Shown here one piece after another: positions 33,159 through 50,251 of a stretch of 64,000 nucleotides of DNA. Source of the stretch: an uncultured Bacteroidaceae bacterium (GTDB lineage Bacteria > Bacteroidota > Bacteroidia > Bacteroidales > Bacteroidaceae); assembly GCA_944320965.1 (NCBI GenBank), contig CALUJO010000001.1:11458-75457 (forward strand), given 5' to 3'. Every line of letters starts with the position of its first letter. Position 1 is the stretch's first letter. The notes under the pieces were generated by a model. The model searched no databases. It was not told the origin of the DNA and saw only the letters and a list, made by a program, of their open reading frames with translations. The position numbers were made by a program, and so were the translations under genes.

Positions 33159-35399
33159 TTATTTCTTCATTATGAAACGTATATTCTTTGCCTTAACAAA
33201 ATCGGCATGAGGAATTGTGTAGTCCTTATATCTCTTGCCGTCTATTTCAATATGGTCAATATATATTGAGTTACCGCCTTCAGGGCGTAATGTTTCCAAT
33301 ACAACCTTGTCATTTCCCCAATATTTAGGGTCAAGCTTTATTTCAACACGGTCAAATACAGGCGAAGTGAATGTATATGTAGGGTCGCCCGGACAGTCAG
33401 GATAGAATCCCATCATACTGAACAGTGCCCATGTTGACATTGTTCCTGTATCGTCATTACCCGGCAATCCGGCAGGCTCATTACGGAAATGCTTTTCAAG
33501 AAGTTCGCGCACAGTCTTCTGAGTTCTCCATTCTTCACCTTTGAAATGACTGAACAGATAAGGATAAATGATGTCAGGTTCGTTTGCCATATCAAAATGA
33601 TTGTCATCAAATATTCTCTGCAGGTTATCTACAAATTTCTTGTTTCCGCCCATAAGCTTTGCAAGTCCTTTAGGGTCATGAGGAATGGCAAATGTATAGT
33701 TCCATGCACTTCCTTCGTGGAATCCAGGTACAGGCTCAAAGTTCTCTCCCTGTTTAGGATTGAAAGGAGTCAGGAATTTTCCGTCGGGAGTGATAGGACG
33801 CAATGCCTTGTATTCCTTACAGTAATAGTGTTTGTAGCCCATTGAACGTTCAAGGAACAGTTTATAGTCTTCCTTCTTGCCAAGGTCTTTTGCAAGCTGT
33901 GCAAGGTTCCAGTCTGCAATATAGTATTCAAGCGCATGTGATACAGAATTGTCAAACTCTTCTCTCAAAGGCACATATCCGCGGCTCATATAATCATCGT
34001 TGTCCGGACGCATAGGGTTGTCCTTTCCAGGAGTTGTAGCTGATTTGTACATTGCTTCATAAGCAAGGTTTATATCAAAGTTCTTTAGTCCTCTTAACCA
34101 TGAATCGGCAATAACACACAATGAAGGGTCACCTTCCATTGTAAATGTTTCGCGTCCGTAAAGTTCCCATTTTGGCAACCAGCCCCATTCCTTATACATG
34201 CCAAGCATTGTATTTATCATATCAAGCTGGCGGTCAGGATAGATAAGAGTATTCAATATATGCACATTGCGGTATGTATCCCACAATGAGAACACGGTAT
34301 AACGGTCACCATCTGTTTTTCCAATACCGTCACTCTCCATCATAGGATATTCGCCGTTAACATCCTGAAGAATGTTAGGATGGATCTGAAGATGATACAT
34401 TGCCGAATAGAAAATTGTACGCTGGTCAGGAGTTCCGCCTGTAACCTGTATTGTAGAAAGTGCGTCATTCCACATATCGCGGGCATCCTGTCTTACTTTC
34501 TCAAAATTGAATTCAGGCTGTTCTGCATTCAGGTTTTCCCATGCATTTTCAATACTTACATATGAAATACCCATCTGTACTTCAATCTGTTCGCCTTCCT
34601 TGGCATCATAGCTGAAGAATACGCCTATATCATCGCCTGAGATTTCCTTACGATACTTTGTATATATCTTATACTTACCGTTATCCTGATCCCATTCAGC
34701 CTCAACTCCTGTCATAGGACGCTGCATTTTCCAATAACCTGAACTTGCAGGTTTCTTGTTGATACGCATTGCAAAGTAAACAGGGAACACGGCCTGACGT
34801 GTATAACAGAATGTACCGAAAAGCTTTGTTCCTTCAATTTCAGTATCACTTATAAAGCGTACTGATGCACCTGTTTCATTTGTCAGTCCTTCACCAAGGT
34901 TAAGCAGTACATTTGCCTGACCTGCAGGGAATGTAAATCTTGATATTCCTGTTCTTTTTGTTGCCGAAACTTCGGTCTTGATATTATATTTTGTAAGAAC
35001 ATTGCTGTAGTATCCCGGAGTTGAAACTTCATCCTTATATTTGCTTCCGTATTCCTTGTATTTTACATTAAGCTCACCTGTTGTAGGCATAAGAAGAAGT
35101 GAAGCCATATCAGGACAACCTACTCCGCTAAGACTTGTGTGGGCATAGCCTGTAAAGAAACAGTTTTCACTTGTATAAGGTGTTGACCACCATCTTGCGT
35201 CCTTGTCATACTTGTTCTCATCGGAACCCATTACATTGAAAGGTACAACCGACATCATACCGACAGGGCATATCGCACCAGGATTTGTCGTACCAAAATT
35301 GGCAGAACCGATAAACGTGTTTACATAATCGACTGGTTGCTGAGCAAATACACTTATTGACATTGCAGCAGCAAGAAACGATGTTTTAAGTTTTTTCAT
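33159..35399 (-). CDS. GH92 family alpha-mannosidase
   Basis: It has a signal peptide, the N-terminal VDYVNTFIGS pattern, and length and motifs typical of Bacteroidetes GH92 alpha-1,2-mannosidases. Confidence 0.85.
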   Translation of the reverse strand: MKKLKTSFLAAAMSISVFAQQPVDYVNTFIGSANFGTTNPGAICPVGMMSVVPFNVMGSDENKYDKDARWWSTPYTSENCFFTGYAHTSLSGVGCPDMASLLLMPTTGELNVKYKEYGSKYKDEVSTPGYYSNVLTKYNIKTEVSATKRTGISRFTFPAGQANVLLNLGEGLTNETGASVRFISDTEIEGTKLFGTFCYTRQAVFPVYFAMRINKKPASSGYWKMQRPMTGVEAEWDQDNGKYKIYTKYRKEISGDDIGVFFSYDAKEGEQIEVQMGISYVSIENAWENLNAEQPEFNFEKVRQDARDMWNDALSTIQVTGGTPDQRTIFYSAMYHLQIHPNILQDVNGEYPMMESDGIGKTDGDRYTVFSLWDTYRNVHILNTLIYPDRQLDMINTMLGMYKEWGWLPKWELYGRETFTMEGDPSLCVIADSWLRGLKNFDINLAYEAMYKSATTPGKDNPMRPDNDDYMSRGYVPLREEFDNSVSHALEYYIADWNLAQLAKDLGKKEDYKLFLERSMGYKHYYCKEYKALRPITPDGKFLTPFNPKQGENFEPVPGFHEGSAWNYTFAIPHDPKGLAKLMGGNKKFVDNLQRIFDDNHFDMANEPDIIYPYLFSHFKGEEWRTQKTVRELLEKHFRNEPAGLPGNDDTGTMSTWALFSMMGFYPDCPGDPTYTFTSPVFDRVEIKLDPKYWGNDKVVLETLRPEGGNSIYIDHIEIDGKRYKDYTIPHADFVKAKNIRFIMKK

Positions 35400-35679: not shown

Positions 35680-35750
35680 TGGACTATGGTGTAATGGCAG
35701 CACAACAGGTTTTGGTTCTGTTTGTCCAAGTTCGAATCTTGGTAGTCCAA
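35680..35750 (+). tRNA. tRNA-Gln (anticodon UUG)
   Basis: Hand-folded cloverleaf. The acceptor stem TGGACTA pairs with TAGTCCA. The anticodon stem ACAGG pairs with TCTGT, around loop TT-TTG-GT. The T-arm is CCAAG-TTCGAAT-CTTGG and the discriminator is A. CCA is not encoded. Confidence 0.85.
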
Positions 35751-35760
35751 CTACAAAAAA

Positions 35761-35788
35761 CGACTCTGAATAATCAGAGTCGTTTTTT
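35761..35788 (+). terminator. intrinsic terminator after tRNA-Gln
   Basis: Stem CGACTCTGA/TCAGAGTCG with loop ATAA, followed by T6. Confidence 0.7.
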
Positions 35789-35862
35789 GCAATATGCTAT
35801 GAAACTATCTATATTGAATAAAATAATGTTTAACTCATATAAAAAAATTACTCTGTAACAAT

Positions 35863-36468
35863 TTATTTTAAATATTTAATAATGAAATAAATCAAATATG
35901 CAGAGTCTGATTTTATATAAATACCATCTGTTTTATTACGTATTGTTATACATAATTGGTCAATATATTCCATATTAAGATTCACTATATCTGACAAATA
36001 ATAACTTTTATGACCAGAATCTATAAAATCAATAGTATCATTAAATATAAATATTTGTCTTTTTGCTGTTTGATTTTGTTGATTTAACCAAACCTCAGCA
36101 GATACTTTATAATAGCACTTTCTGCCATAACATATTGCATTATCATATTTTATTGGGCATAATACTTTTGCTATTTGAGACTTAATCGCATCTAAAGACA
36201 TATTTAATACATATGAGTTACTCTGCCTCACAAATTTCTTCATTACAGAATTTAAATCTATAACATTTTCACATCTATATATCGCTGAACAAAGTTTTTT
36301 TGTTTTATACAAAATATATTTATTTTTAATCCAATGTATAATTAATCTTATAAGGAACATTAGAACAAATATTAATAATAATCCTTTAGCCCAACTTTCA
36401 TTAGTATAAAATACACATGCAAAACAAATCACACCTACTATATACCACCAATTACTAATTTTATCCAT
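35863..36468 (-). CDS. hypothetical membrane protein (2 N-terminal TM helices plus about 140-aa soluble C-terminal domain), island gene 4
   Basis: 201-aa ORF in a block that is about 18 % G+C. TM helices are WWYIVGVICFACVFY and GLLLIFVLMFLIRLII. Its ATG lies 1 nt after the stop of the upstream ORF. I recognise no family. Confidence 0.55.
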   Translation of the reverse strand: MDKISNWWYIVGVICFACVFYTNESWAKGLLLIFVLMFLIRLIIHWIKNKYILYKTKKLCSAIYRCENVIDLNSVMKKFVRQSNSYVLNMSLDAIKSQIAKVLCPIKYDNAICYGRKCYYKVSAEVWLNQQNQTAKRQIFIFNDTIDFIDSGHKSYYLSDIVNLNMEYIDQLCITIRNKTDGIYIKSDSAYLIYFIIKYLK

Positions 36469-36469
36469 A

Positions 36470-36832
36470 TTATGCTTTATAATTTAAAATACCTATTATA
36501 TAAGTTGCTAATACACAAATCAAGAATGTTACCCTGAATATATCCCAAGAATATTTTAATCTATAATCAAATTTTTCTACATTACTATTTCTATATTTAA
36601 ATTGTTGTGAAACAACTTCTTCAAAATTCTTATAAGTATATATCATAATTAATAAAGGGAATATTATACTTAAAATACCCGCTGATAACAAAAATTTAAG
36701 CATTACACTTTTATCTGATAATACATTAGATATGACTATATGTTCCTCATTTAAAAATAATATAATCAAAACTTCTATAAACAAAATTGTTTTAGGAGAA
36801 CGAGATATTAACCAACATAAAAATGTTTTCAT
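36470..36832 (-). CDS. hypothetical small 3-TM membrane protein, island gene 3
   Basis: Start is set at Met 36832 (MKTFLCWLISRS...), 1 nt after the stop of the nuclease-like ORF. It has three hydrophobic helices and no recognised family. Confidence 0.5.
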   Translation of the reverse strand: MKTFLCWLISRSPKTILFIEVLIILFLNEEHIVISNVLSDKSVMLKFLLSAGILSIIFPLLIMIYTYKNFEEVVSQQFKYRNSNVEKFDYRLKYSWDIFRVTFLICVLATYIIGILNYKA

Positions 36833-36833
36833 A

Positions 36834-37412
36834 CTACCACCAATTACGTAACCAGAATTCATTAAACAAATCACTTTCTGAATCTTCTTTATATTCATTT
36901 AAAAATAAATCAGATAGTGGCAAATATCTAAATCCAGCTTCTTTGCAATTATGAATCATCATTTCTGGTATTTCATCAAAACAGGTAATTAGTACATAAT
37001 GTAACTTAAAAATATTCTGATCATAAGTTTCTTCAAATATTTTTCTGTATCTAATAAGTTGATTATCATGTACCTGTGTATATACTTTATTTTCTATTAA
37101 AATAGCATAATGTTCTATTTTACCATTGTATTCTAATTCTATATTTGCATGAAGGTCAATATAATTCCACTGCTTCCAGGTTTCTACATAATTTACTTTT
37201 ATATCTTCATTATTTTCTATTCCTAACAAATTGAATAATATAGATCTGCAATATTTATATAATATAGGCTTTTCTCTACTATAAGTAATTGCTGCACGTC
37301 TTATTGTCCAAGATAAAATATAGTCCAAAATAGTTTCAATATGACCACTATTTTCGCTTGAATCTTTCATCAGTAATGATTTTTCCATAATAAAATTATA
37401 TTCCTTGTCCAA
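36834..37412 (-). CDS. PD-(D/E)xK nuclease-like protein (short, 184-192 aa), island gene 2
   Basis: Ordered motifs: helix Glu (HIETILDYILSW), Asp (NYIDLHANIE), Glu-x-Lys (AILIENKV) and Q..RY (HDNQLIRYRK). The start is either 37412, giving a 17-nt overlap with the upstream ORF, or 37388. Confidence 0.55.
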   Translation of the reverse strand: MDKEYNFIMEKSLLMKDSSENSGHIETILDYILSWTIRRAAITYSREKPILYKYCRSILFNLLGIENNEDIKVNYVETWKQWNYIDLHANIELEYNGKIEHYAILIENKVYTQVHDNQLIRYRKIFEETYDQNIFKLHYVLITCFDEIPEMMIHNCKEAGFRYLPLSDLFLNEYKEDSESDLFNEFWLRNWW

Positions 37413-38355
37413 TTAATGTTTGATCAAATTTAATAGACTCATATGCCAAGCTTTCATCATCTCCTTTTTTCATAATTGTACAAAGAAATGCTTGCATATT
37501 ACTATATCCTACGATATAACTATTTTTTGTGTTTTTCGCTTTAACAAAATAAACTCTCTCAATATCAAATAAAGTATTTACTAAATGATTATATATTATT
37601 GTATATGCATATTCTAAAGTACAATCAATAGATGTTGATTCGTTCATCATACATTGTAAATACACATTTCGTAAATCTATGTCTTCAACATTAGAAACCA
37701 TTATTCCATCATCTTTTGAATAAAAAGAATTATCTGGAAAAATAAAAGTAGTAGTAATTTTCTCAAATTCTGAAGAGTTTATCCATTCACCCAAATCAGA
37801 AAAAGATTTTTCATCATTATAAACAGAATACAATTCATTAATATGTTCTTTAGTTGCATAGAAATCTCCAACCAAGGCATCTCCCATCTTTTCCCTAATA
37901 TCATCAAAAGAGTTTTCTATTTGTTTTACTTTCTGATTCAAAGAATTGATTTTTTCTTGATATATATCATCATAAGATTTACCTAAAAATGGCTGTAAAT
38001 CACTTATCATTCCATCAAATATCATATCCGCGTTATAAACTTTATTATATTCTTTTTCATATTGTTCTTTTATAAAGTATGCAGATTCTTCTAACTGAGG
38101 ACAGTAATTTTCATTCCATAGTTCAATTATCCTTTCATTTACCAATTCTCCGCACATTTCTCCAATGAGAATAGAATCAATTTTTTCTTTTTGTTCTTTA
38201 GTTGGATAAAAATTACACCCACAGACAAAGAATGTTAATACTATGAATAATAGAGGTTTTAAATAATATTTACATAATAGATTTCTAAAATGTGAACTTA
38301 AATACATAAGTGATGATTTCTTTGAAACTGTCACCCCAAAAATCAAATTTTTCAT
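37396..38355 (-). CDS. hypothetical lipoprotein, island gene 1
   Basis: The n-region has K/R residues, the h-region is LLFIVLTFFV, and the lipobox is VCGC. A helical/coiled segment (QEKINSLNQKVKQIENSFDDIREKMG) is followed by a beta-rich C-terminus. No recognised family. Confidence 0.55.
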   Translation of the reverse strand: MKNLIFGVTVSKKSSLMYLSSHFRNLLCKYYLKPLLFIVLTFFVCGCNFYPTKEQKEKIDSILIGEMCGELVNERIIELWNENYCPQLEESAYFIKEQYEKEYNKVYNADMIFDGMISDLQPFLGKSYDDIYQEKINSLNQKVKQIENSFDDIREKMGDALVGDFYATKEHINELYSVYNDEKSFSDLGEWINSSEFEKITTTFIFPDNSFYSKDDGIMVSNVEDIDLRNVYLQCMMNESTSIDCTLEYAYTIIYNHLVNTLFDIERVYFVKAKNTKNSYIVGYSNMQAFLCTIMKKGDDESLAYESIKFDQTLIGQGI

Positions 38356-38409
38356 ATTGTATTAAATTTTATGATTCTTTGTGCCTAAGAATCGAATATT
38401 TATATGAAG

Positions 38410-38616
38410 AAGCGTGGCACTACTATGCCATGTTCTGATTTGGAGGTCGTAGGAAAAAACCTTTAGCACGAATATGGAAATAGCAGCCCACGCTATAGCA
38501 TGAGAAACCACTATGCCATCCTTGTGCTAAATTTGAAAGTTTCCTACGTTTCCAAATCACAAGATAAGCATAACACTTCTTGTTATAAACAAATTAAAGA
38601 ATGAACATCTTCATTC
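38410..38616 (-). ncRNA. candidate structured 5' leader or ncRNA of the island operon
   Basis: Nested long-range helices: 38436-44/38551-59 and 38448-56/38540-48 (9 bp each), then 38462-71/38522-31 (10 bp) and 38474-77/38516-19. Local hairpins lie at 38414-31, 38480-96 and 38373-92. G+C is locally higher than in the surroundings. Strand is assigned from the promoter box at 38623-30. Confidence 0.3.
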
Positions 38617-38622
38617 AGACTA

Positions 38623-38630
38623 CAAATATA
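38623..38630 (-). promoter_or_regulatory. -7 promoter box for the AT-rich four-gene island operon
   Basis: The minus strand reads TATATTTG, a perfect consensus. It lies 268 nt upstream of the first island ATG (38355), implying a long leader. Confidence 0.4.
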
Positions 38631-38691
38631 ATCAAGATATATAATATTCCAAAGTTTACTATTTATATAACTATCATTACCATAACATTAT

Positions 38692-38699
38692 TATCTTTG
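38692..38699 (+). promoter_or_regulatory. -7 promoter box for the Crp/Fnr-family gene
   Basis: TATCTTTG, 101 nt upstream of the ATG at 38800. It is divergent from the island promoter. Confidence 0.4.
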
Positions 38700-38799
38700 T
38701 TAAATAATCAACTTGAATTTAATTAATATATATTCATCCTATCTATAATACTTATATAGTAACAAATTAAAATCTCTTATCAATTATAATATCAGAAAC

Positions 38800-39384
38800 A
38801 TGCAAAATATAATAAAGAAAATACGTCAATATTATCCTGTATCAGACAAATCCATTGAGGAACTTTTCTCCGGAATGAAACAGGTGTTTTATCCCAAGCA
38901 CCATATTCTGATTGAGGGAGGAAAGAAAAGCGGCAATGTGTTTTTCATTGAAAACGGATTCAGCCGTTCATACTGTCTGATAAACGGCGAAGAGGTAACA
39001 ACATGGTTCTCAAGAGAAGGCGACATAACGTTTGCCCTTAATGATTTGTATCACAATACAGCAGGATTTGAGTTTGTTGAACTGCTTGAAAATTCCGAAC
39101 TGTTTGTCATTTCAACAGAAAAACTCAACAGACTGTGTGAAACAAACATTGAAATAGCAAACTGGTCAAGGGTATGCCACCAGGAATGCCTGCTTAAATT
39201 GCAGCTGACAAGAATAGACAGGCTTACACTGTCGGCACAGGAAAGATACGAGAAACTTGTTCTTGAACAACCAGATATTCTGCAAAGAGCCAATCTTGGA
39301 CATCTTGCATCCTATCTGGGAATGACACAACCAAGCCTCAGCAAAATAAGGGCAAAGAAACAAACAGGCAAAATCAACCCATAA
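38800..39384 (+). CDS. Crp/Fnr family transcriptional regulator
   Basis: The N-terminal cNMP-binding-like beta-roll (VFFIENGFSRSY) is followed by a C-terminal HTH (LGHLASYLGMTQPSLSKIRAK). Confidence 0.75.
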   Translation: MQNIIKKIRQYYPVSDKSIEELFSGMKQVFYPKHHILIEGGKKSGNVFFIENGFSRSYCLINGEEVTTWFSREGDITFALNDLYHNTAGFEFVELLENSELFVISTEKLNRLCETNIEIANWSRVCHQECLLKLQLTRIDRLTLSAQERYEKLVLEQPDILQRANLGHLASYLGMTQPSLSKIRAKKQTGKINP

Positions 39385-40498: not shown

Positions 40499-40613
40499 AT
40501 TAAACTCATCTTTTTGTTTAAACCAGAGCAAAAATATAATATGCTTGTGAGAAAAAATTTAACTTAAGCAAAAAAAGATTTTGGTTTACTATTTTGTTAT
40601 TATCAAGATTCAC

Positions 40614-40621
40614 TATATTTG
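40614..40621 (+). promoter_or_regulatory. -7 promoter box upstream of the structured RNA and lipoprotein gene
   Basis: TATATTTG, 345 nt upstream of the ATG at 40966. Confidence 0.35.
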
Positions 40622-40794
40622 CAACAATCCCAATTGGGATATATATAATTAAAAGGCGTTTACTAAACGCTTTGTTTTGGCTGCTTGAAACTTCGCACAC
40701 TTCAAATCCCGTCAAAAACAAAGCAACGGTAGATGTTCATTTTGCGTATACATTAATTCTGTCATATCTTATGATAGAAATATTCTGTATATAC

Positions 40795-40891
40795 AGACGT
40801 GGACTTCTTTGCGTTGCTCGTTTTGATGGGATGGGCAATGCGAAGGCCTCAAGCAGTGAAACGGGTAAACAGTAATAGAGTTTCCACGTCT
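40795..40891 (+). ncRNA. candidate riboswitch-like structured RNA (class unknown)
   Basis: A perfect 9-bp closing helix, AGACGTGGA (40795-803) with TCCACGTCT (40883-91), is followed by a T-run. An inner 9-bp helix at 40809-17/40835-43 has two G-U pairs that form only on the plus strand, with a 17-nt loop TCGTTTTGATGGGATGG. Confidence 0.3.
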
Positions 40892-40965
40892 TCTTTTTAT
40901 ATATCAATCACTATTGTTTTTAATCTTTGTTATGGAAACTCAGCAAAGTCTTAAATTTTATAGTT

Positions 40966-41763
40966 ATGAAAAGATTTATTGATTTGTGCCTGTACATGGC
41001 ATTTATCGTTTTCGCCTCATTCATGTTAACCGCCTGTGAAAAAGACAATGAACCATCAAAAGGAAAAGGTGGAAACACAACATCGACTGGAAATGTTCCC
41101 GACCCCGAAGGTACAATAAATGTCTCAATGAGAAATGGAAACAGCAAAGAAGCGACAAAAATTGACACTCAATTCTTTATTGATTATGACAATAATTTCT
41201 CAAGCTATACTTCTGAAAGATGTTCTTTTGCGTGTGTTGGAAAAGTAAACGGATTAGGAAACATAACAGGAATACCAACTAGTGGTTGGGCAACAAAAGT
41301 GGCAGTAGAACCTGGTAATGGATATGTTGTTCGTCATTTCTATAAATATGGTCATTGCTATTATTATCGCCTATATGTTGAAGATTATATTCTTAATACA
41401 TCCGGCGGTATAATCGGCGCAAAAGTAAAATACCAGACTCCGTTCAAAGGCAAAGATGTTGAAATAAAACTGGATTTGGAAGATAGCAGGTTTGATGTTG
41501 TTGATGACGAAATTTATTTTTATATGAACAGCGGGATAGAATATATATATTTCAAAGATTTCAATGATATAGTTTATTTTGATGTAGAAATCGAAAACAG
41601 TAAAAATATATTAGCATTTCAGGAATCATCAAAAACAAACCATCCAAGTGACGGCATCTTTTTAGATGCTTCTTATAGTTATTTACCAGCATCTGGAACA
41701 GTAGTAATTACAACAGCTTATGGAAAAGAAACAAGATTCCATATTTTAGACCGTAGATATTAA
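40966..41763 (+). CDS. hypothetical lipoprotein
   Basis: Start is set at Met 40966 (MKRFIDLCLYMAFIVFASFMLTACEKD), a lipoprotein signal. A G/N/T/S-rich linker is followed by a beta-rich domain. No recognised family. Confidence 0.55.
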   Translation: MKRFIDLCLYMAFIVFASFMLTACEKDNEPSKGKGGNTTSTGNVPDPEGTINVSMRNGNSKEATKIDTQFFIDYDNNFSSYTSERCSFACVGKVNGLGNITGIPTSGWATKVAVEPGNGYVVRHFYKYGHCYYYRLYVEDYILNTSGGIIGAKVKYQTPFKGKDVEIKLDLEDSRFDVVDDEIYFYMNSGIEYIYFKDFNDIVYFDVEIENSKNILAFQESSKTNHPSDGIFLDASYSYLPASGTVVITTAYGKETRFHILDRRY

Positions 41764-41980
41764 TTCAGCCTTCTTTTTATAGAAAAATCAATCAAACCAT
41801 ATTTAAAATATTCCATAAAAGACATAAAACATTTTACGGGAATAGGATATCTTTAAAAAGATGATAGATATAAACACTAAAAATATCAGACATTTTTGGT
41901 ATTGATGTAGTATATAAATTTCATTTATTTCCTATTGTTTTTTTGGATAAATACAAAGGACATTTCAGAAAAATATAGAA

Positions 41981-42017
41981 AAAAGCCGGAATCAGTCAAA
42001 TGTGATTCCGGCTTTTT
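41981..42017. terminator. bidirectional terminator between lipoprotein gene and aqpZ
   Basis: Stem AAAAGCCGGAATCA/TGATTCCGGCTTTT with flanking A and T runs. Confidence 0.7.
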
Positions 42018-42048
42018 ATAAATAAAAATACCAAACAATTATTTGTTA

Positions 42049-42735
42049 TTATTTTTCTGATTCAAATATCCTCCAGACAATTGCACTCAAAGCTGCACCA
42101 ACCATTGGGGCAACAATGAAAAGCCATAACTGTGAAAGTGCATCTCCGCCTTCAAACAATGCAGGACCTATGCTTCTTGCCGGATTAACTGATGTTCCTG
42201 TAATAGGAATACATACAATATGAATCAGAACAAGTGTAAGACCTATTGCAAGTCCTCCCATTGAACCTGCACCTTTCTTTGAATCGGTTGCTCCTAGAAC
42301 AACAAGCACAAAGATAAATGTAAACAGCATTTCGGCAAGAAATGCCTGTCCCATCATACCTTCTTTAAAACTGTTTGAACCTGTTACAGTAGGACCTGCA
42401 TGATCACCAAGGGAAACAAGCGCATAAAGAAAAGCTGATCCTATTATAGCACCTATTACCTGGAAAAGCATATACATCCCGGCTTCTTTTCCTTTCATTC
42501 TGCCAGACAAAAATACCCCGAATGTTATTGCAGGATTAATATGGCATCCGGAAACATTTCCGATTGTATAAGCCATTGCAACTACGGCAAGACCAAAAGC
42601 CAATGCCACACCAATTGTTCCTACTCCCGCTCCGACAGCTTCCCCTGCACTGCCGGCAAAGATTGCGCTCCCGCAACCCATAATGACAAGAACCATTGTC
42701 CCTATCATTTCTGCAATATACTTTTTCATAAGCAA
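42049..42735 (-). CDS. aqpZ: aquaporin Z
   Basis: Two NPA boxes (HINPAITF and SVNPARSIG) and six TM helices. Confidence 0.9.
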   Translation of the reverse strand: MLMKKYIAEMIGTMVLVIMGCGSAIFAGSAGEAVGAGVGTIGVALAFGLAVVAMAYTIGNVSGCHINPAITFGVFLSGRMKGKEAGMYMLFQVIGAIIGSAFLYALVSLGDHAGPTVTGSNSFKEGMMGQAFLAEMLFTFIFVLVVLGATDSKKGAGSMGGLAIGLTLVLIHIVCIPITGTSVNPARSIGPALFEGGDALSQLWLFIVAPMVGAALSAIVWRIFESEK

Positions 42736-43791: not shown

Positions 43792-45612
43792 TTAGTTTAT
43801 TATAATATTATCTGACGGATATTTGTAATTTTGATTGCTTACAGGTTTTATAAAGCTCAGCATAAATGTCAATATACCAACTCTTCCTATAAACATAAGT
43901 ATTATAACCACATACTTTGACATATCACACAACGAAGGAGTAAGGTTCAGACTGGAACCTACCGTATTCACTGCAGAAATACACTCAAATACTATCGCGG
44001 TAAAAGACTTGTCCGGCTCAAGGAAAGTTATGATTGTTATTGCAACAAACAACACAACTATCTGAATCATCATTGTTGCATTTGCTCTTTGTATTGAATC
44101 CTGAGAAATCGTACGCTGAAATGCCTCTACACGATTGCTGTTTTTCAATACTGCTTTCAGGTTAAGCAGAATTACCGCAAAAGCATTTACTTTAAGTCCT
44201 CCGGCAGTTGACTGCGAACCGCCGCCTATGAACATAAGCAGCATTGTTATAAATATAGTCAAAGGCATGAATGTAGTTATATCAACCCCTACAAAACCTG
44301 CCGTTCTCGGAACTACCGCATTGAAAAAAGCCTGTGTCAGTTTGTCGGCAACAGGAAGACCGGCAAATGAATTGTTCCATTCAATCAATGCAATCAGTGC
44401 TGTACCAACAAAAAGCAGTATAAATGTGAACAGCAGTACAATCTTTGTATTAAGATTATAAAGATGCTTTTTATGCTGAATCCTGTAAGGTTTACGTATT
44501 ATCAGATAAAACAGATTTCTTACTTTAAAGAACAATACTTCTTTAAGGTTAACCAATATAGGAAAACCTATACCACCGAAAATGACCAGTCCGGAAATAA
44601 CCAGAAAAAGCATATTATGGTTCTGAAGAACAAGAGGATTGTTAAGATTGTTTTGCAGCGTTGAAAAACCGGCATTGCAAAATGCCGATATTGAATGGAA
44701 TATGGAGAATCCTACCTCTTCCTCAAAACTCATATTCAAAGTATCATGAATGCTTAGCCATATTGCAAAAGCTCCCAAAGCTTCTATAACAACAGTAAAA
44801 AGCAAAATATAAAGCAATGTTGACAGCAATGAATTAAGGGATTTGCTGTTTACCATATCCTTCATAACAATCTGGTTGTATATGGAAGAACCTCCCATAA
44901 AAAATACTGCAAAGAAACTTGTGAAAGTCATTACTCCCAAACCGCCAATCTGGATGAGAAGTATGATGATTGCCTGTCCCAATGTAGTAAATACGGTACT
45001 AACATCAATAGTTGTCAATCCCGTAACACAGACTGCACTGGTGGCTGTAAAAAGGGCATCTATAAAGGATATACCGTTGACAGTTGCCTTAGGTATCATC
45101 AAAAGACCTGTACCAATCAATATTATGACAAAAAAGCTGACGGCAAGTATAAGCGACGGATTTGTCCTTTTACCCAAAAGACGGGTTATTCCAGCCGAAA
45201 GATTCTGGAGCGAAAGCAGCAACAACAAAACCAGCATGAAATAGTGACTGTGCAATATCTTCCAAAGATACATCATATATCCGGATTCAGGGCAATAAAA
45301 TATTACAGGTATTAATGTTGACAGCAAAAGTATATCAAGAATCCACCCGAAATACCGGGTCTCCTGCTTCGTGTTTTCATAGCTCAGCGTAAAATTCACC
45401 CCGAAAGAGACAAGATATACAATCCAAATAGCCTTATAGACCAAATGTAAATCAGCTCTTATTTCATCACTTATTATAAAACCATATTCATAGACAAGTA
45501 ATGCTATAAACAGTAATGATGAAAAATAGGAAACAGCATTAATTATTTTCAATATTAAAGGAAAAACCTTTATATTGTCTTCAAATATATCTTTTGACTT
45601 TTTGCGTATCAT
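43792..45612 (-). CDS. trkH: TrkH/KtrB family potassium transporter, membrane subunit
   Basis: 606-aa polytopic protein with TrkH-type pore-loop motifs (CVTGLT, CNAGFS, PRTAGF, VGSSL). It is adjacent to trkA. Confidence 0.8.
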   Translation of the reverse strand: MIRKKSKDIFEDNIKVFPLILKIINAVSYFSSLLFIALLVYEYGFIISDEIRADLHLVYKAIWIVYLVSFGVNFTLSYENTKQETRYFGWILDILLLSTLIPVIFYCPESGYMMYLWKILHSHYFMLVLLLLLSLQNLSAGITRLLGKRTNPSLILAVSFFVIILIGTGLLMIPKATVNGISFIDALFTATSAVCVTGLTTIDVSTVFTTLGQAIIILLIQIGGLGVMTFTSFFAVFFMGGSSIYNQIVMKDMVNSKSLNSLLSTLLYILLFTVVIEALGAFAIWLSIHDTLNMSFEEEVGFSIFHSISAFCNAGFSTLQNNLNNPLVLQNHNMLFLVISGLVIFGGIGFPILVNLKEVLFFKVRNLFYLIIRKPYRIQHKKHLYNLNTKIVLLFTFILLFVGTALIALIEWNNSFAGLPVADKLTQAFFNAVVPRTAGFVGVDITTFMPLTIFITMLLMFIGGGSQSTAGGLKVNAFAVILLNLKAVLKNSNRVEAFQRTISQDSIQRANATMMIQIVVLFVAITIITFLEPDKSFTAIVFECISAVNTVGSSLNLTPSLCDMSKYVVIILMFIGRVGILTFMLSFIKPVSNQNYKYPSDNIIIN

Positions 45613-45631
45613 TGATTTATATTTTCTTAGA

Positions 45632-45639
45632 CAAAACTA
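45632..45639 (-). promoter_or_regulatory. -7 promoter box for trkH-trkA
   Basis: The minus strand reads TAGTTTTG, 20 nt upstream of the ATG at 45612. Confidence 0.35.
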
Positions 45640-45806
45640 ATCAATAAAGTTTATATGAAGAAATATGATATAGATTATTTTAAATATCACATTCAGAGGA
45701 AAATATTTAATATAATAACGACTATTAATTCACTTTTTATGAAAATAAACATAAACAGATAAGAAAAAATACGTTTTTTTTATTGCATTTATATCATAAA
45801 TTGTCA

Positions 45807-45814
45807 TATATTTG
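45807..45814 (+). promoter_or_regulatory. orphan plus-strand -7 promoter box with no downstream plus-strand ORF
   Basis: TATATTTG, followed by hairpins. The next plus-strand gene is 3.9 kb away. Confidence 0.3.
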
Positions 45815-45820
45815 CCACTG

Positions 45821-45953
45821 AAATTAATGCAGCGGCATTAATTTATATTTTTATATTTTCCCTTTTCTGTTTTTTATTTATGGCATTTCAATAATTATAT
45901 ATGGAAATGCCATTCTTTTATTAAAAAAGGTCGGTAAAAACCAACCTTTTATT
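45821..45953 (+). ncRNA. candidate small RNA (speculative)
   Basis: It has an orphan promoter box, then a perfect 10-bp hairpin AAATTAATGC-AGCG-GCATTAATTT (45821-44). A perfect 10-bp inverted repeat ATGGCATTTC/GAAATGCCAT follows (45880-89/45904-13), then a terminator hairpin at 45927-48 followed by TTTT. Confidence 0.2.
45921..45948. terminator. hairpin after pyrC-like gene, usable on both strands
   Basis: Stem AAGGTCGG/CCAACCTT with one mismatch, an A6 run upstream and TTTT downstream. Confidence 0.5.
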
Positions 45954-45954
45954 A

Positions 45955-47304
45955 TTAATATTCAAATGTTAATCTTTGTCCTTTTATTCCGTCATTTATC
46001 TTGCCATTGTCATAGACTATGTTTCCGTTTACAAATGTCATAAGCACTTTATGTGAGAATTTTCTTCCTTCAAGAGGACTCCATTTACATTTACTCTCAA
46101 TCATAGTGTTATCAAGAACCCAGTCTTCCGGTGATACCAATGCAAGGTCGGCATAATAACCTTCCCTGATATATCCGCGTTTCTCTATATGATAAAGTTC
46201 GGCAGGAGCGTGACACATCTTGTTAATAACCTCTTCATAGGACAATACTCCCTGCGAAGCCATATCAAGCATTGTGACAAGCGAGAACTGAAGCATAGGC
46301 ATTCCTGATACTGCCTTGACTGCTCCACCCTCCTTCTCAGAAAGAAGATGAGGTGCATGGTCGGTACCTATGACATCTATCCTGCCGCCTTTTGACAATG
46401 CCCTGCGCAATGCATCACGGTCTTCAACACTCTTTATTGCAGGATTGCACTTTATACGTGTTCCAAGTGTCTTATAATAACTACTGTCAAAAAGAAGATG
46501 TGCAACACAGGCTTCGGCTGTTATATGCTTGTCTTTCAAATTACCGTCAGACAACAATGAAAGTTCCCTGGCTGTACTTATATGCATTATATGAAGACGT
46601 GAACCGTATTTGTCGGCAAGTTCAACGGCAAGAGCAGAAGAACGGTAACATGCTTCTTCATTCCTTATAAGAGGATGATATTCCACAGGAACATCATCTC
46701 CGAATTCTGCCTTGTATTTCTTTGTCAGTTCTGATATAATGGATGAATCCTCGCAATGGGTAGCTATAATCATATCCGTACCGTCAAAAATACTGCATAG
46801 GGCAGATTTACTGTCAACAAGCATATTTCCGGTACTTGACCCCATAAAAAGCTTTACACCGCAAACATTTCTTTTGTCAATACGGGAAAGAAGGTCTGAA
46901 TTGTTGTTTGTAGCTCCAAAATAATATGAATAGTTAACCAGACTGTTCTCGGCAGCATTTGCATATTTCGCCTCAAGTGCTTCAATTGTTGTTGTAGGAG
47001 GATTGGTATTAGGCATATCCATATACGAAGTAACTCCTCCGGCAGCTGCTGCACGTGTCTCGCTTACTGTGTCCGCTTTATGAGTATATCCCGGATCACG
47101 GAAGTGTACATGGTCATCAATAACTCCTGGAACAAGCAAAAGTCCATCGGCGTCTATCTCCTTATCCGCATGAACAAGTTCATCACCATAAAATATTTTC
47201 TTTATTTTACCTTCGGAAATTATAACAGAGCCCTTACAGGTTTTGCCCTCATTTATAATAGTCGCATTGCGAATTACAATATCTTCCATATCATTTCCTT
47301 TCAT
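45955..47304 (-). CDS. pyrC: dihydroorotase-type cyclic amidohydrolase
   Basis: DDHVHFRDPG (HxH) and GTDHAPH motifs. The start may instead be Met 47289 (MEDIVIRNA...), which would remove the 14-nt overlap with the upstream gene. Confidence 0.8.
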   Translation of the reverse strand: MKGNDMEDIVIRNATIINEGKTCKGSVIISEGKIKKIFYGDELVHADKEIDADGLLLVPGVIDDHVHFRDPGYTHKADTVSETRAAAAGGVTSYMDMPNTNPPTTTIEALEAKYANAAENSLVNYSYYFGATNNNSDLLSRIDKRNVCGVKLFMGSSTGNMLVDSKSALCSIFDGTDMIIATHCEDSSIISELTKKYKAEFGDDVPVEYHPLIRNEEACYRSSALAVELADKYGSRLHIMHISTARELSLLSDGNLKDKHITAEACVAHLLFDSSYYKTLGTRIKCNPAIKSVEDRDALRRALSKGGRIDVIGTDHAPHLLSEKEGGAVKAVSGMPMLQFSLVTMLDMASQGVLSYEEVINKMCHAPAELYHIEKRGYIREGYYADLALVSPEDWVLDNTMIESKCKWSPLEGRKFSHKVLMTFVNGNIVYDNGKINDGIKGQRLTFEY

Positions 47305-48092: not shown

Positions 48093-49082
48093 CTACAAGC
48101 CAAGTTTTGCGGATATGTCAAGCATCCTCTTTATAGGATTTATAGCCTTTTCGGCAACAGAAGGATCAACTTCTATCAACGGCCATTCATATTTCAATGA
48201 ATTGTAAAGTTTCGCCATTGTATTAAGACGCATGAAATTACATTCATTACATGCACAAGTACTGTCTTCCGGAGGAGCAGGAATGAAATTCTTATCCTTG
48301 CACTGCTTGCGCATCTCGTGAAGGATACCTGATTCGGTTGCAACTATATAGTTTTTATTGTCATGCTTCTTTGCATAATTAAGCAGAGCTGCTGTTGAAC
48401 CTACAAAATCAGCGAGCTTTACAACAACTGATTTACACTCCGGATGTGCAAGAACAAGTGCATCTGGATATTGTTTCTTTAATTCAATAATCTTCTCAAC
48501 AGAGAACTGTTCATGAACATGACAAGCACCGTCCCACAAAACCATATTTCTTCCGGTTACTGAATTAATGTAATTTCCAAGATTCCTGTCCGGACCGAAT
48601 ATTATCTTTTCATCTTCAGGGAAACTTTCTACAATCTGACGTGCATTTGTTGAAGTTACAACAACATCAGTAACAGCTTTTGTTGCAGCAGAAGTATTGA
48701 CATAAGAAATAACTGTATGGTCAGGATGTTCTTCAACAAACCTTGCAAATCTGTCAGCAGGACAACTGTCGGCAAGCGAACATCCGGCATTCAGGTCAGG
48801 AACGATAACCTTCTTGTCAGGACACAATATCTTTGCCGTTTCGCCCATGAAATGAACTCCGCACATTACAAGTATATCCGCATCGGTCTTTGCCGCCCAT
48901 TGTGCAAGTGCAAGGCTGTCTCCAACAAAATCAGCTATATCCTGTATCTCACCTTCCTGGTAGTAGTGCGCAAGGATAACCGCATTCTTTTCTTTTTTCA
49001 GTTTATTTATTGCCTCTTTTATGTTGTCGGTATCTACAACTTCGTCAACATAACCTTTGTTTTTCCAAGATTCTTTTATCAT
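48093..49082 (-). CDS. nadA: quinolinate synthase
   Basis: 329 aa with NadA-typical segments (ILAHYYQ, VHFMGE, three-cysteine cluster context). Confidence 0.9.
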   Translation of the reverse strand: MIKESWKNKGYVDEVVDTDNIKEAINKLKKEKNAVILAHYYQEGEIQDIADFVGDSLALAQWAAKTDADILVMCGVHFMGETAKILCPDKKVIVPDLNAGCSLADSCPADRFARFVEEHPDHTVISYVNTSAATKAVTDVVVTSTNARQIVESFPEDEKIIFGPDRNLGNYINSVTGRNMVLWDGACHVHEQFSVEKIIELKKQYPDALVLAHPECKSVVVKLADFVGSTAALLNYAKKHDNKNYIVATESGILHEMRKQCKDKNFIPAPPEDSTCACNECNFMRLNTMAKLYNSLKYEWPLIEVDPSVAEKAINPIKRMLDISAKLGL

Positions 49083-49682
49083 ATTTGTTCTAAAATTGAG
49101 TTTACCTTAAGCTTCCTCTCAACAATTCACATTATATTATTATAATCCTTATTTTATTTATTCTTTTAAATGAATATTAATGATGATGATAATGGTGTGT
49201 TAGTATTGTTGGAAATATTTTTGGTTTTTATTTGCATAATAACTTATTAAACTGATAGGATGACGTTTTCAATATTATATTCACATTTGTATTTCACTTA
49301 TATATCTTATAAATCAGTTAAATATAGTATTCTGTCAACACTATGTTAGTAATCGCAAAGTTAGTATTTTTTTTATATCAAGGTTATTGAAAAGCAGGTA
49401 TAACTATGTGTAAATATCAAAAATAAAAAATAAAAACTTTATTTGGATTATTGATTATTGCTGGAGTATGACAGTTGTTTTGAATAATGCAACAGTAAAT
49501 TATTATTTTCTTTAATCATTGATTATACACATTTTCAACACTTTTACACACATGTGTCTTTAATATTGATTTTGTTTAGACAATTCTGAATATCAGTATT
49601 TTATATTGTATGGTATTAATATTTTCAAAAAACGGTATCAACATAATGGATTATACTGTTTGCCGTGTTTATGAATAAAGCA

Positions 49683-49690
49683 TATCTTTG
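49683..49690 (+). promoter_or_regulatory. -7 promoter box for the TrmH-family gene
   Basis: TATCTTTG, 28 nt upstream of the ATG at 49718. Confidence 0.45.
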
Positions 49691-49717
49691 CACATATAAC
49701 AGTCATATTTTGGGTTT

Positions 49718-50251
49718 ATGAGAAAGTTGAAAATTACCGAACTTAACAGATTAAGTGCCGAAGAATTCAAGAATGTTGAAAAACTTCCGTTGGTTGTTGT
49801 TCTTGACAATATAAGGAGTTTGCACAATATAGGTTCTGTGTTCCGTACTTCTGATGCGTTCAGAGTTGCAAACATATATCTTTGCGGTATAACTGCAACA
49901 CCGCCTCATGCCGAAATACACAAGACAGCTTTGGGAGCTGAAGACACTGTTGACTGGAAATATTTCAATGATACCTTGGATGCGGTCAAGGAGTTGAGAG
50001 ACAACGGTTTTGATATATTCTCGGTTGAGCAGGTCGAAGGCAGTGTAATGCTTGAAAACTTTGTACCTGAAAAGGGCAGGAAATATGCTGTTATATTGGG
50101 TAATGAAGTCAAAGGTGTCAGACAGGATGTTGTTGATGCAAGTGACGGATGCATAGAAATACCGCAATATGGAACAAAACATTCGCTTAATGTTTCGGTA
50201 ACATCGGGTATTGTTATCTGGGATTTGTTCTGCAAGCTTTCCAGACTGTAG
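49718..50251 (+). CDS. TrmH/SpoU family RNA 2'-O-methyltransferase
   Basis: SpoU motifs NIGSVFRTSDAF, LGNEVKGV and IPQYGTKHSLNVSV. Confidence 0.75.
   Translation: MRKLKITELNRLSAEEFKNVEKLPLVVVLDNIRSLHNIGSVFRTSDAFRVANIYLCGITATPPHAEIHKTALGAEDTVDWKYFNDTLDAVKELRDNGFDIFSVEQVEGSVMLENFVPEKGRKYAVILGNEVKGVRQDVVDASDGCIEIPQYGTKHSLNVSVTSGIVIWDLFCKLSRL

Follow-up and report, generated by a model that had tools for sequence, protein, structure and literature searches.

Results

A low-G+C block of four genes adjoins tRNA-Gln

We analyzed a 64,000-nt stretch of DNA from an uncultured Bacteroidaceae bacterium (GenBank assembly GCA_944320965.1, contig CALUJO010000001.1, positions 11,458 to 75,457), referred to here as the window, and in it a block of four open reading frames (ORFs), genes A to D, together with the promoter and leader that precede them. 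The block occupies 35863-38355 on the minus strand and adjoins a tRNA-Gln(UUG) gene. Its G+C content is 24.5% vs. 37.6% for the whole window, and it is the lowest-G+C 2.5-kb stretch of the 64 kb (mean of 2.5-kb windows 37.6%, standard deviation 3.6%). The four co-directional genes individually have 22-26% G+C. An initial annotation, made by reading the sequence, had described an AT-rich foreign block beside tRNA-Gln; its hand counts proved exact when the 60-nt lines were recounted (10 G+C at 36541, 11 at 37081 and 12 at 37921, compared with 24/60 at 34081 in the flanking GH92 gene). The block is compositionally foreign. The features of the locus are as follows.

35680-35751, plus strand: tRNA-Gln(UUG), convergent with the operon (ARAGORN; Rfam tRNA model, 60.4 bits)
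35753-35790, no strand assigned: hairpin AAAAAACGACTCTGAATAATCAGAGTCGTTTTTTG, read from the sequence, probable bidirectional terminator
35863-36468, minus strand: gene D, 201 aa, with two N-terminal transmembrane helices, a helical linker and a beta-rich four-Cys domain (ORF, alignment)
36470-36862, minus strand: gene C, 130 aa (or 120 aa from 36832), with three predicted transmembrane helices (ORF, gene calls)
36834-37388, minus strand: gene B, 184 aa, predicted stand-alone PD-(D/E)xK nuclease, PF14281 (Pfam, alignment, AlphaFold2 (AF2) model, Foldseek)
37396-38355, minus strand: gene A, 319 aa, probable lipoprotein with a putative lipobox and a helical N-terminal half (ORF)
38373-38393, minus strand: P2, small hairpin GAUUCUU-aggcaca-AAGAAUC, 18 nt ahead of the gene A start codon (folding)
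38405-38582, minus strand: P1, 175-nt extended hairpin with the invariant apical core ATAGCGTGGGCTGCTATT at 38479-38496 (fold, covariance model)
38599-38616, minus strand: P0, 5′ hairpin GAAUGAA-gaug-UUCAUUC at the predicted transcript start (folding)
38623-38655, minus strand: putative Bacteroides-type promoter, with the -7 box TATATTTG at 38623-38630 and TTTG within ACTTTGG at 38649-38655 (motif position)

The ORF list agrees with the four packed same-strand ORFs described initially, and the details of their packing stand in part. The single-nucleotide gap between C and D at 36469 was confirmed. For gene C, the gene callers place the start at 36862 (130 aa), which overlaps B by 29 nt; the alternative start at 36832 (120 aa), which gives the 1-nt gap at 36833 proposed before, is possible as well. 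The proposed 17-nt overlap of A and B is improbable, because it needs a TTG start at 37412, whereas the gene calls on 21 contigs and all homologues use the ATG at 37388 (184 aa), leaving a 7-nt gap beyond the gene A stop codon at 37396-37398. Profile scans and tblastn found no integrase, transposase, methyltransferase, ATPase, reverse transcriptase or cyclase within or beside the block, in agreement with the first description.

The block is preceded by a conserved putative promoter and a structured leader

Upstream of the block lies the divergent gene for a Crp-like regulator. Between it and gene A there is a G+C-richer stretch (38373-38655) that holds, in 5′–3′ order, the promoter, P0, the 175-nt P1 and P2, followed by the gene A ATG at 38355. 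This stretch is 77% identical to the sequence upstream of a gene A homologue in a second locus (L022), despite the A proteins being only 51% identical. For P1 we built a covariance model, R1, a family defined in this analysis. The window copy matches R1 with 171.9 bits (E 1.9e-36) over model positions 1-175 and folds with a free energy of -71.9 kcal/mol (z -7.4), and a P1 profile search retrieved 122 copies, 94 of them unique. The window holds the complete R1 module, i.e., a sense, full-length P1 with TAnnTTTG and P0 before it and a start codon within ~50 nt, in a single copy.

To examine covariation, 58 non-redundant P1 copies were aligned with MAFFT. In this alignment 97.2% of the pair cells are paired, compared with 38-50% with slid partners, and compensatory cells in which both sides have changed number 137 vs. 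43 ± 8 in shuffles, none of the 500 shuffles reaching the observed value. Columns 39/147 (GC in 32 copies, CG in 25) and 34/153 (GC in 29, AU in 27) are examples. These results are strong evidence that P1 is under selection as a structure. The sense strand folds more stably than its complement in 94/94 copies (means -66.0 vs. -55.1 kcal/mol) and several invariant G-U pairs are A-C mismatches on the opposite strand, a polarity which, as far as the pairing data alone go, also fits a single DNA strand of the sense polarity. The P1 sequence is also a long, imperfect palindrome that ends in inverted repeats of 10 bp (AAGAAGCG and CGCTTCTT).

The elements around P1 recur with it. Promoters of Bacteroides have the consensus TTTG / TAnnTTTG, and TAnnTTTG was found 46-51 nt ahead of P1 in 83 of the 106 unique flanks. 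The position of the P0 hairpin is occupied in all 64 representatives, with stem sequences that differ, and a P2 hairpin is predicted in all 62 representatives folded, 27 of which carry a GGRACUG-like loop motif. Rfam 15 gave no covariance match at E ≤1 over 38373-38655, nor over the canonical copies in L232, L233, L130 and L150. Literature searches by core sequence and by topic, with incomplete coverage that leaves room for an earlier description, did not find the leader described; the small RNAs called FopS were considered and rejected as its identity, as they are associated with polysaccharide utilization loci and unrelated to it. B homologues in L013 and L015 are preceded by R1 matches, but at 28 and 24 bits, respectively, these were too weak to rely on. 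Judged from sequence and predicted fold, the module appears to be an uncatalogued family of structured RNA that forms the front end of mobile cargo. The "native leader" mentioned in passing by the initial annotation is thus, on our reading, a conserved promoter with a structured 5′ untranslated region (UTR) marking a cargo position, which that annotation had overlooked.

The module typically stands between a relaxase gene and unrelated accessory genes

The 18-nt P1 core occurs in more than 120 gut-metagenome contigs among the matches listed. A relaxase-like ORF of 400-470 aa ends ~90-110 nt upstream of the module in 29 of 96 loci; over 228 aa it shares 30% identity with MobV, the annotated relaxase of pBUN1. 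In pBUN1 of B. uniformis (NZ_AP019725; L233, 6001-7130) the order is integrase, hypothetical protein, primase-helicase, toprim protein, MobV relaxase, module and blaMUN-1. The last of these, an extended-spectrum beta-lactamase gene directly downstream of MobV, starts 46 nt past the module; because it lies directly behind the module, its expression is probably governed by it. A plasmid record of B. finegoldii has the module followed by a six-gene operon of hypothetical proteins that closes with a NERD nuclease. Eight metagenome loci have a convergent tRNA-Ser gene 0.8-4.4 kb past the leader on the other strand, an arrangement that matches that of tRNA-Gln here.

In most of 102 loci the first ORF starts ~40-50 nt past P1. 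The first genes past the module fall into 56 unrelated clusters, and those of 51 representatives include DarT, AbiEi, HamA, LmuA, TmtA, TolC-like, BspA-type leucine-rich-repeat, TetR and Crp-like proteins and many lipoproteins without a family. Roughly one tenth of the recognisable cargo is defence-related, and position behind the module is therefore by itself no argument for defence. The context of relaxase, tRNA and diverse cargo suggests that the module marks the cargo slot of integrative mobilizable elements.

One pair of loci (L147/L169 vs. L130) differs by 1.5 kb, the difference beginning exactly after the P1 core, i.e., after GCTGCTATTG and before TT; in L147, which lacks the right half of P1, a GNAT-like gene follows directly. 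We read this difference as a single deletion or insertion event. An integron-like crossover at the core was rejected, as truncated P1 copies end at differing model positions (104-161) and share no junction.

Gene B encodes a predicted stand-alone PD-(D/E)xK nuclease

The second gene had been annotated as a PD-(D/E)xK-like nuclease, and this assignment was borne out apart from the length, which is 184 and not 192 aa. GP B, as encoded from the ATG at 37388, matches Pfam PF14281 (PDDEXK_4) above the gathering cut-off (24.3 vs. 22.3 bits, E 3.3e-5), and most of its homologues carry precomputed PF14281 matches. In an alignment of 27 sequences E18, D78, Q110 and Y114 are invariant while E99 and K101 are at least 90% conserved, giving a complete D...ExK site (E99-x-K101) together with Q110xxxY114. 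The AF2 model has a predicted local distance difference test score (pLDDT) of 91.8. The best solved structures found for it with Foldseek are the nuclease domains of AspBHI, MspJI, Card1, CinB and FokI (E 1e-3 to 3e-2, probability 0.87-0.99), at low TM-scores of 0.27-0.38, and among viral proteins the best hit is a phage product of 200 aa, annotated as "PD-(D/E)XK nuclease superfamily protein" (TM-score 0.52). A gene B profile searched against PDB sequences showed no sequence-level relation to any chain. With its catalytic motif and its restriction-endonuclease-like alpha/beta fold, the predicted product belongs to the PD-(D/E)xK superfamily, and gene B is, by sequence and model, a PD-(D/E)xK nuclease with an intact active site.

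Among defence profiles, the core of B (residues 71-150) matches positions 100-175 of the 415 of PADLOC PDC-S26 (E 3.5e-9). Because only ~80 of ~400 profile positions match, we do not assign B to PDC-S26 as a full-length member and regard it as a minimal stand-alone domain. The earlier statement that the block matches no named system thus holds in so far as no PADLOC multi-gene model fits, and fails in that the core of B matches this candidate. No methyltransferase domain was found in A-D or the flanking genes, so that the block does not qualify as a type II restriction-modification system.

The neighbourhoods of B homologues are varied. Those 70% identical to B are solitary genes amid housekeeping genes; a 56% homologue sits between a WYL regulator and a HpaII-type endonuclease, and a 54% homologue has miaA before it and a membrane protein after it. 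Homologues of 38-41% identity occur on 15 IMG/VR contigs, and in those examined they are preceded by an XRE-type helix-turn-helix (HTH) gene of 84-97 aa that matches the PADLOC "control protein", capH and PDC-M69A profiles. On two of these contigs (L235 and L245) the B homologue lies 2 kb from a complete type II Zorya system (ZorA2 E 1.6e-227, ZorB2 4.5e-82, ZorE2 3.9e-114). Within this contig set, a terminase turned up on L247, not on L235 or L245.

Several further observations concern these loci. L235 (5722-11719) and L245, which are Bacteroidales-type IMG/VR contigs, carry a hotspot in which the XRE-HTH gene and B homologue, an Nmad2-domain gene and type II Zorya stand together. In L013 (6703-9787) a HpaII-type restriction endonuclease gene (PF09561) directly follows the B homologue and a WYL/WCX regulator, and no methyltransferase is visible in this 16.5-kb locus. 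In cluster P0022, B residues 1 to ~150 are joined to a relaxase domain (PF03432), which reflects either a genuine fusion or a join made in assembly beside a mobilization gene.

Gene B most likely encodes a small cytoplasmic Mg-dependent DNA endonuclease that is able to act alone and restricts incoming DNA; we propose DNA cleavage because of the family, the active site and the neighbourhood. Among A-D, a defence role is plausible for B alone.

Genes A, C and D encode predicted lineage-restricted envelope proteins

The predicted signal peptide of gene A ends in ...FFVCGC, and the product is probably a lipoprotein. Relatives of A form three clusters among 5.8 billion proteins and those of D two, while a gene D profile retrieved six representatives among 1.84 billion. 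Alignment of D with a 53% homologue showed four conserved cysteines (C60, C66, C113 and C118). The AF2 model of D, made from three sequences, reached a pLDDT of 59 and was unusable. Searches of A, C and D against Pfam, NCBIfam, PHROGs and PADLOC gave sub-threshold or compositional matches at most, and searches with A and with a gene D profile found nothing usable among PDB sequences. For gene C the only match was a weak one to PADLOC 2TM_IV (E 1.8e-4), which covers 74 of 235 positions and the transmembrane region only; with this partial match and no adjacent cyclase, C was rejected as a CBASS 2TM effector.

In two independent assemblies, L003 (4255-4352) and L004 (2361-2445), homology to the window ends within gene C at 36586, with unrelated sequence beyond. 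This break, which may mark where an insertion element ends, would mean that C is disrupted in some strains and would point to its dispensability. A 132-aa version of gene A (P0044) was seen on seven contigs of up to 60 kb, so that some strains may have a truncated or split A. From their sequences, A (lipoprotein) and C and D (inner-membrane) are predicted lineage-restricted envelope proteins, all three near-orphans. Their roles may lie in exclusion or in partnership with B, possibilities which we keep in consideration because of two partial recurrences of linkage (L017 and L022).

The complete gene set is confined to close strains

The full A-B-C-D set was found in close strains (84-100% aa identity). 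Seventeen long metagenome contigs have an identical or near-identical cassette in this position, and the four genes also stay together in variants that are 95% and 90% identical in nucleotide sequence. Elsewhere the genes meet in pairs: in L022, A (51%) adjoins B (76%), and in L017, within an unrelated genomic context, B (50%) is followed by X, a secreted protein of 648 aa carrying a TonB_C domain, and then by D (53%) and the lipoprotein Y. No similarity was found between A, C or D and the L017 proteins X and Y or the L015 membrane protein. Co-occurrence as a unit, which the initial annotation had proposed to check, is thus seen in close strains and reduces elsewhere to A-B and B-D. On this distribution of homologues, B is an autonomous and mobile gene with A and D as occasional companions, and the four-gene "system" is lineage-specific.

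The 90%-identical variant (L018) has a different upstream flank (159-711 and 792-963) with two ORF fragments that may resemble the C-terminus of Bacteroides KilA-N-type proteins, a likeness not confirmed by Pfam. The same flank holds a 44-aa truncated lipoprotein ORF and a divergent R1 relative (35.7 bits), which lies upstream of the cassette.

Flanks of the block

On the tRNA side, the G+C-rich hairpin at 35753-35790 lies 3′ of tRNA-Gln between an A-run and a T-run and probably terminates both the tRNA and the convergent operon. The Rfam scan aligned it, in both orientations, with the 3′ stem of MCS4, a weak match. The GH92 gene beyond the tRNA is 76-82% identical (aa) to relatives from Bacteroidaceae and Ca. 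Avibacteroides, which places the organism nearer to these than to Prevotella. None of 80 GH92 loci taken from a genome collection has a homologue of A-D, and tRNA-Gln is kept beside GH92 in just one of them (L023, an uncultured Bacteroidaceae with 82% aa identity in GH92). Beyond the tRNA, L023 continues with non-syntenic housekeeping genes and has neither the block nor the Crp-like gene; it is not a clean empty site. With the pBUN1 integrase, MobV and a metagenome relaxase as tblastn queries, the window gave no trace of an integrase or relaxase better than E 0.65.

On the side of the Crp-like gene, several contigs begin at 38545. An invertible promoter or a repeat was rejected as the cause, as the contigs overlap by 30 nt and the cassettes of co-resident strains are 5% apart; judging from the sequences, these contigs are strain bubbles and do not reflect absence of the block. 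At a distance of 2 kb from the block, the stretch 40579-42071 (1.5 kb, with a DUF5036-like lipoprotein gene at 40927-41763) is swapped for ~250 nt in strain contig L002 and is a second presence/absence polymorphism. Two more stretches of the window fall below 30% G+C in 1-kb windows (45001-46300 and 48801-50100).

Discussion

Our results suggest, with a probability that we put at roughly 60%, that this region represents accessory cargo which originated in a mobile element and was left stranded beside tRNA-Gln. The promoter with the -7 box at 38623-38630 would start a transcript with a ~260-nt structured 5′ UTR comprising P0, P1 and P2, and a single A-B-C-D transcript would run to the bidirectional hairpin at 35753-35790. 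In integrative mobilizable elements of Bacteroidales the module, placed immediately downstream of the relaxase gene, would drive the cargo between the backbone and the tRNA attachment site; here the integrase-primase-relaxase backbone would have been lost and leader and cargo left behind. Gene B would restrict incoming DNA, with A, C and D as envelope proteins. As the leader module marks a cargo position, the origin of the block can be explained without a dedicated defence island. The defence-island idea put forward initially is supported in so far as relatives of B occur in defence-type neighbourhoods.

Several points weigh against this interpretation. Insertion is not directly demonstrated, because there is no empty site to compare, the far side of L023 being different, and a repeat of the tRNA 3′ end of at least 9 nt, sought at the far side (38300-39000), was not found. 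The block is present in every long contig of the species recovered via the flanking Crp-like protein and, since all of these carry it, is not visibly variable within the species. Loss of a backbone right up to the promoter is awkward, and the leader-cargo unit may move or recombine in another way. The invariance of the P1 core is partly a matter of construction, because the loci were gathered with the exact 18-mer. Finally, the B-D (L017) and A-B (L022) adjacencies each recur once at ~50% identity, which hints at functional coupling that a view of the genes as random cargo does not predict.

More tentatively, and at somewhat less than even odds, we suggest that promoter-P0-P1-P2 is an undescribed and widespread class of cis-acting RNA leader controlling any cargo of Bacteroidales mobilizable elements, be it for resistance, defence or surface functions. 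Control might be exerted via a factor bound at the invariant apex or via processing or attenuation at P1. Genes A-D would then be domesticated cargo under that control, with B restricting incoming DNA.

Of the alternatives, the one that survives best is that A-B-C-D form one integrated anti-phage or anti-plasmid system, in which detection or blocking of invaders would fall to the envelope proteins, which would also activate or position the nuclease. We consider it unlikely. It would account for the tight packing in one operon, for the renewed adjacency of A and B in L022 (A at 51%) and of B and D in L017 (50-53%) beside the exported proteins X (TonB_C) and Y (lipoprotein), for the membrane proteins that also follow B homologues in L015 and L247, and for the defence-type neighbourhoods of the B family. 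Yet L017 lacks A and C, and its proteins X and Y resemble none of A, C and D; the 70%-identical B homologues are solitary, the phage-borne ones have an XRE regulator as partner, A and D hardly occur outside the lineage, gene C is disrupted in some strains, if the break at 36586 is so read, and no PADLOC multi-gene model fits. The system of nuclease and membrane proteins that the initial annotation had seen in the four genes found no support, given the solitary 70% homologues of B, the near-orphan A and D, a full set found only in close strains, and a C that is interrupted in two assemblies.

Less likely again is that B is a selfish or addictive nuclease, either toxin-like or a regulated restriction-like enzyme, that stabilises its carrier DNA, with A, C and D as unrelated passengers. 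B does occur as a single mobile gene at many unrelated positions, an XRE-HTH gene (84-97 aa) precedes it in phage-like contigs, and cluster P0022 joins its sequence to a relaxase domain. However, neither an antitoxin nor a regulator adjoins B in the window or in the solitary loci, a methyltransferase partner was not seen, and toxicity is without support.

Least probable is that P1 is a DNA-level element (a MITE-like repeat, i.e., a miniature inverted-repeat transposable element, an integron-like recombination site, or a conjugative single-strand hairpin acting as promoter or priming site) with the operon merely beside it, since the long palindrome with its terminal repeats, the adjoining relaxase genes, the one locus pair with an indel right after the core and the highly diverse cargo are outweighed by the invariant G-U pairs and sense-strand advantage, a double-strand-type promoter box at a fixed upstream distance, P0 and P2 flanking P1 in the same orientation, a start codon at a fixed distance, truncated copies without a common crossover point, and the single copy in the window.

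Comparison with known systems places the block nearest to mobile elements. Like the integrative mobilizable elements of Bacteroides (NBU1/NBU2, Tn4555), it has a tRNA at one end and low-G+C accessory genes, which in those elements lie between the mobilization backbone and the attachment site, and the identical promoter-leader module follows the relaxase in pBUN1 and 29 metagenome loci. Unlike these elements, the window has no integrase, primase, relaxase or detectable attachment (att) repeat, so that the combination of integrase and relaxase which defines them is absent, and the tRNA is Gln, not Ser or Leu; NBU elements use tRNA-Leu and tRNA-Ser sites. To our knowledge, the leader is not a described feature of NBU/Tn4555-type elements.

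Integron cassettes (attI/attC) share a conserved hairpin beside diverse, promoter-less-looking genes and find a parallel in the locus pair with an indel next to GTT. In contrast to them, the module occupies the 5′ end of the cargo and has a conserved sequence, its own promoter and strand-specific G-U pairs, and it comes with no integrase.

The recombinase-associated orphan-immunity arrays of Bacteroidales, rAID-1, have among their criteria at least two co-directional downstream genes with G+C ≤41% (10.1101/471110). Like them, the block consists of co-directional, low-G+C, horizontally acquired small genes, many for lipoproteins or membrane proteins, with a conserved non-coding sequence nearby (10.1101/471110), and its four co-directional genes of 22-26% G+C fall within this criterion. 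Unlike rAID-1, it has no XerD-like recombinase near it, no intergenic repeats (A-D abut or overlap) and no detected similarity to immunity families. We rejected this identity for want of the recombinase and the intergenic repeats, the upstream gene being the divergent Crp-like regulator.

B itself shares the catalytic core of PF14281/PDC-S26, with the D...ExK and QxxxY residues. At 184 aa it is a minimal domain, unlike PDC-S26 with ~400 positions, which is itself only a candidate single-gene system. The nuclease-domain fold of its model is like that of the modification-dependent restriction enzymes AspBHI and MspJI and of the CRISPR ancillary nucleases Card1 and Can2, at the low TM-scores given above (0.27-0.38); unlike these, B has no SRA-like or CARF sensor domain.

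As a defence candidate the block is modest, offering a small nuclease of a known superfamily and three orphan envelope proteins, and the description "tRNA-adjacent, AT-rich, nuclease plus membrane proteins" is insufficient to call a system. The cassette is a new instance of familiar mobile cargo with a stand-alone PD-(D/E)xK nuclease, and what appears to be uncatalogued is the promoter-leader module. The value of the locus lies in this module of ~260 nt, covarying and strand-specific, which stands upstream of unrelated accessory genes including a beta-lactamase and recognised defence genes. If it is a true regulatory RNA, cargo expression in Bacteroidales mobile elements would have a common switch, cargo slots would have a practical marker that may lead to new resistance and defence genes in gut genomes, and Bacteroides engineering would gain a ready-made expression part.

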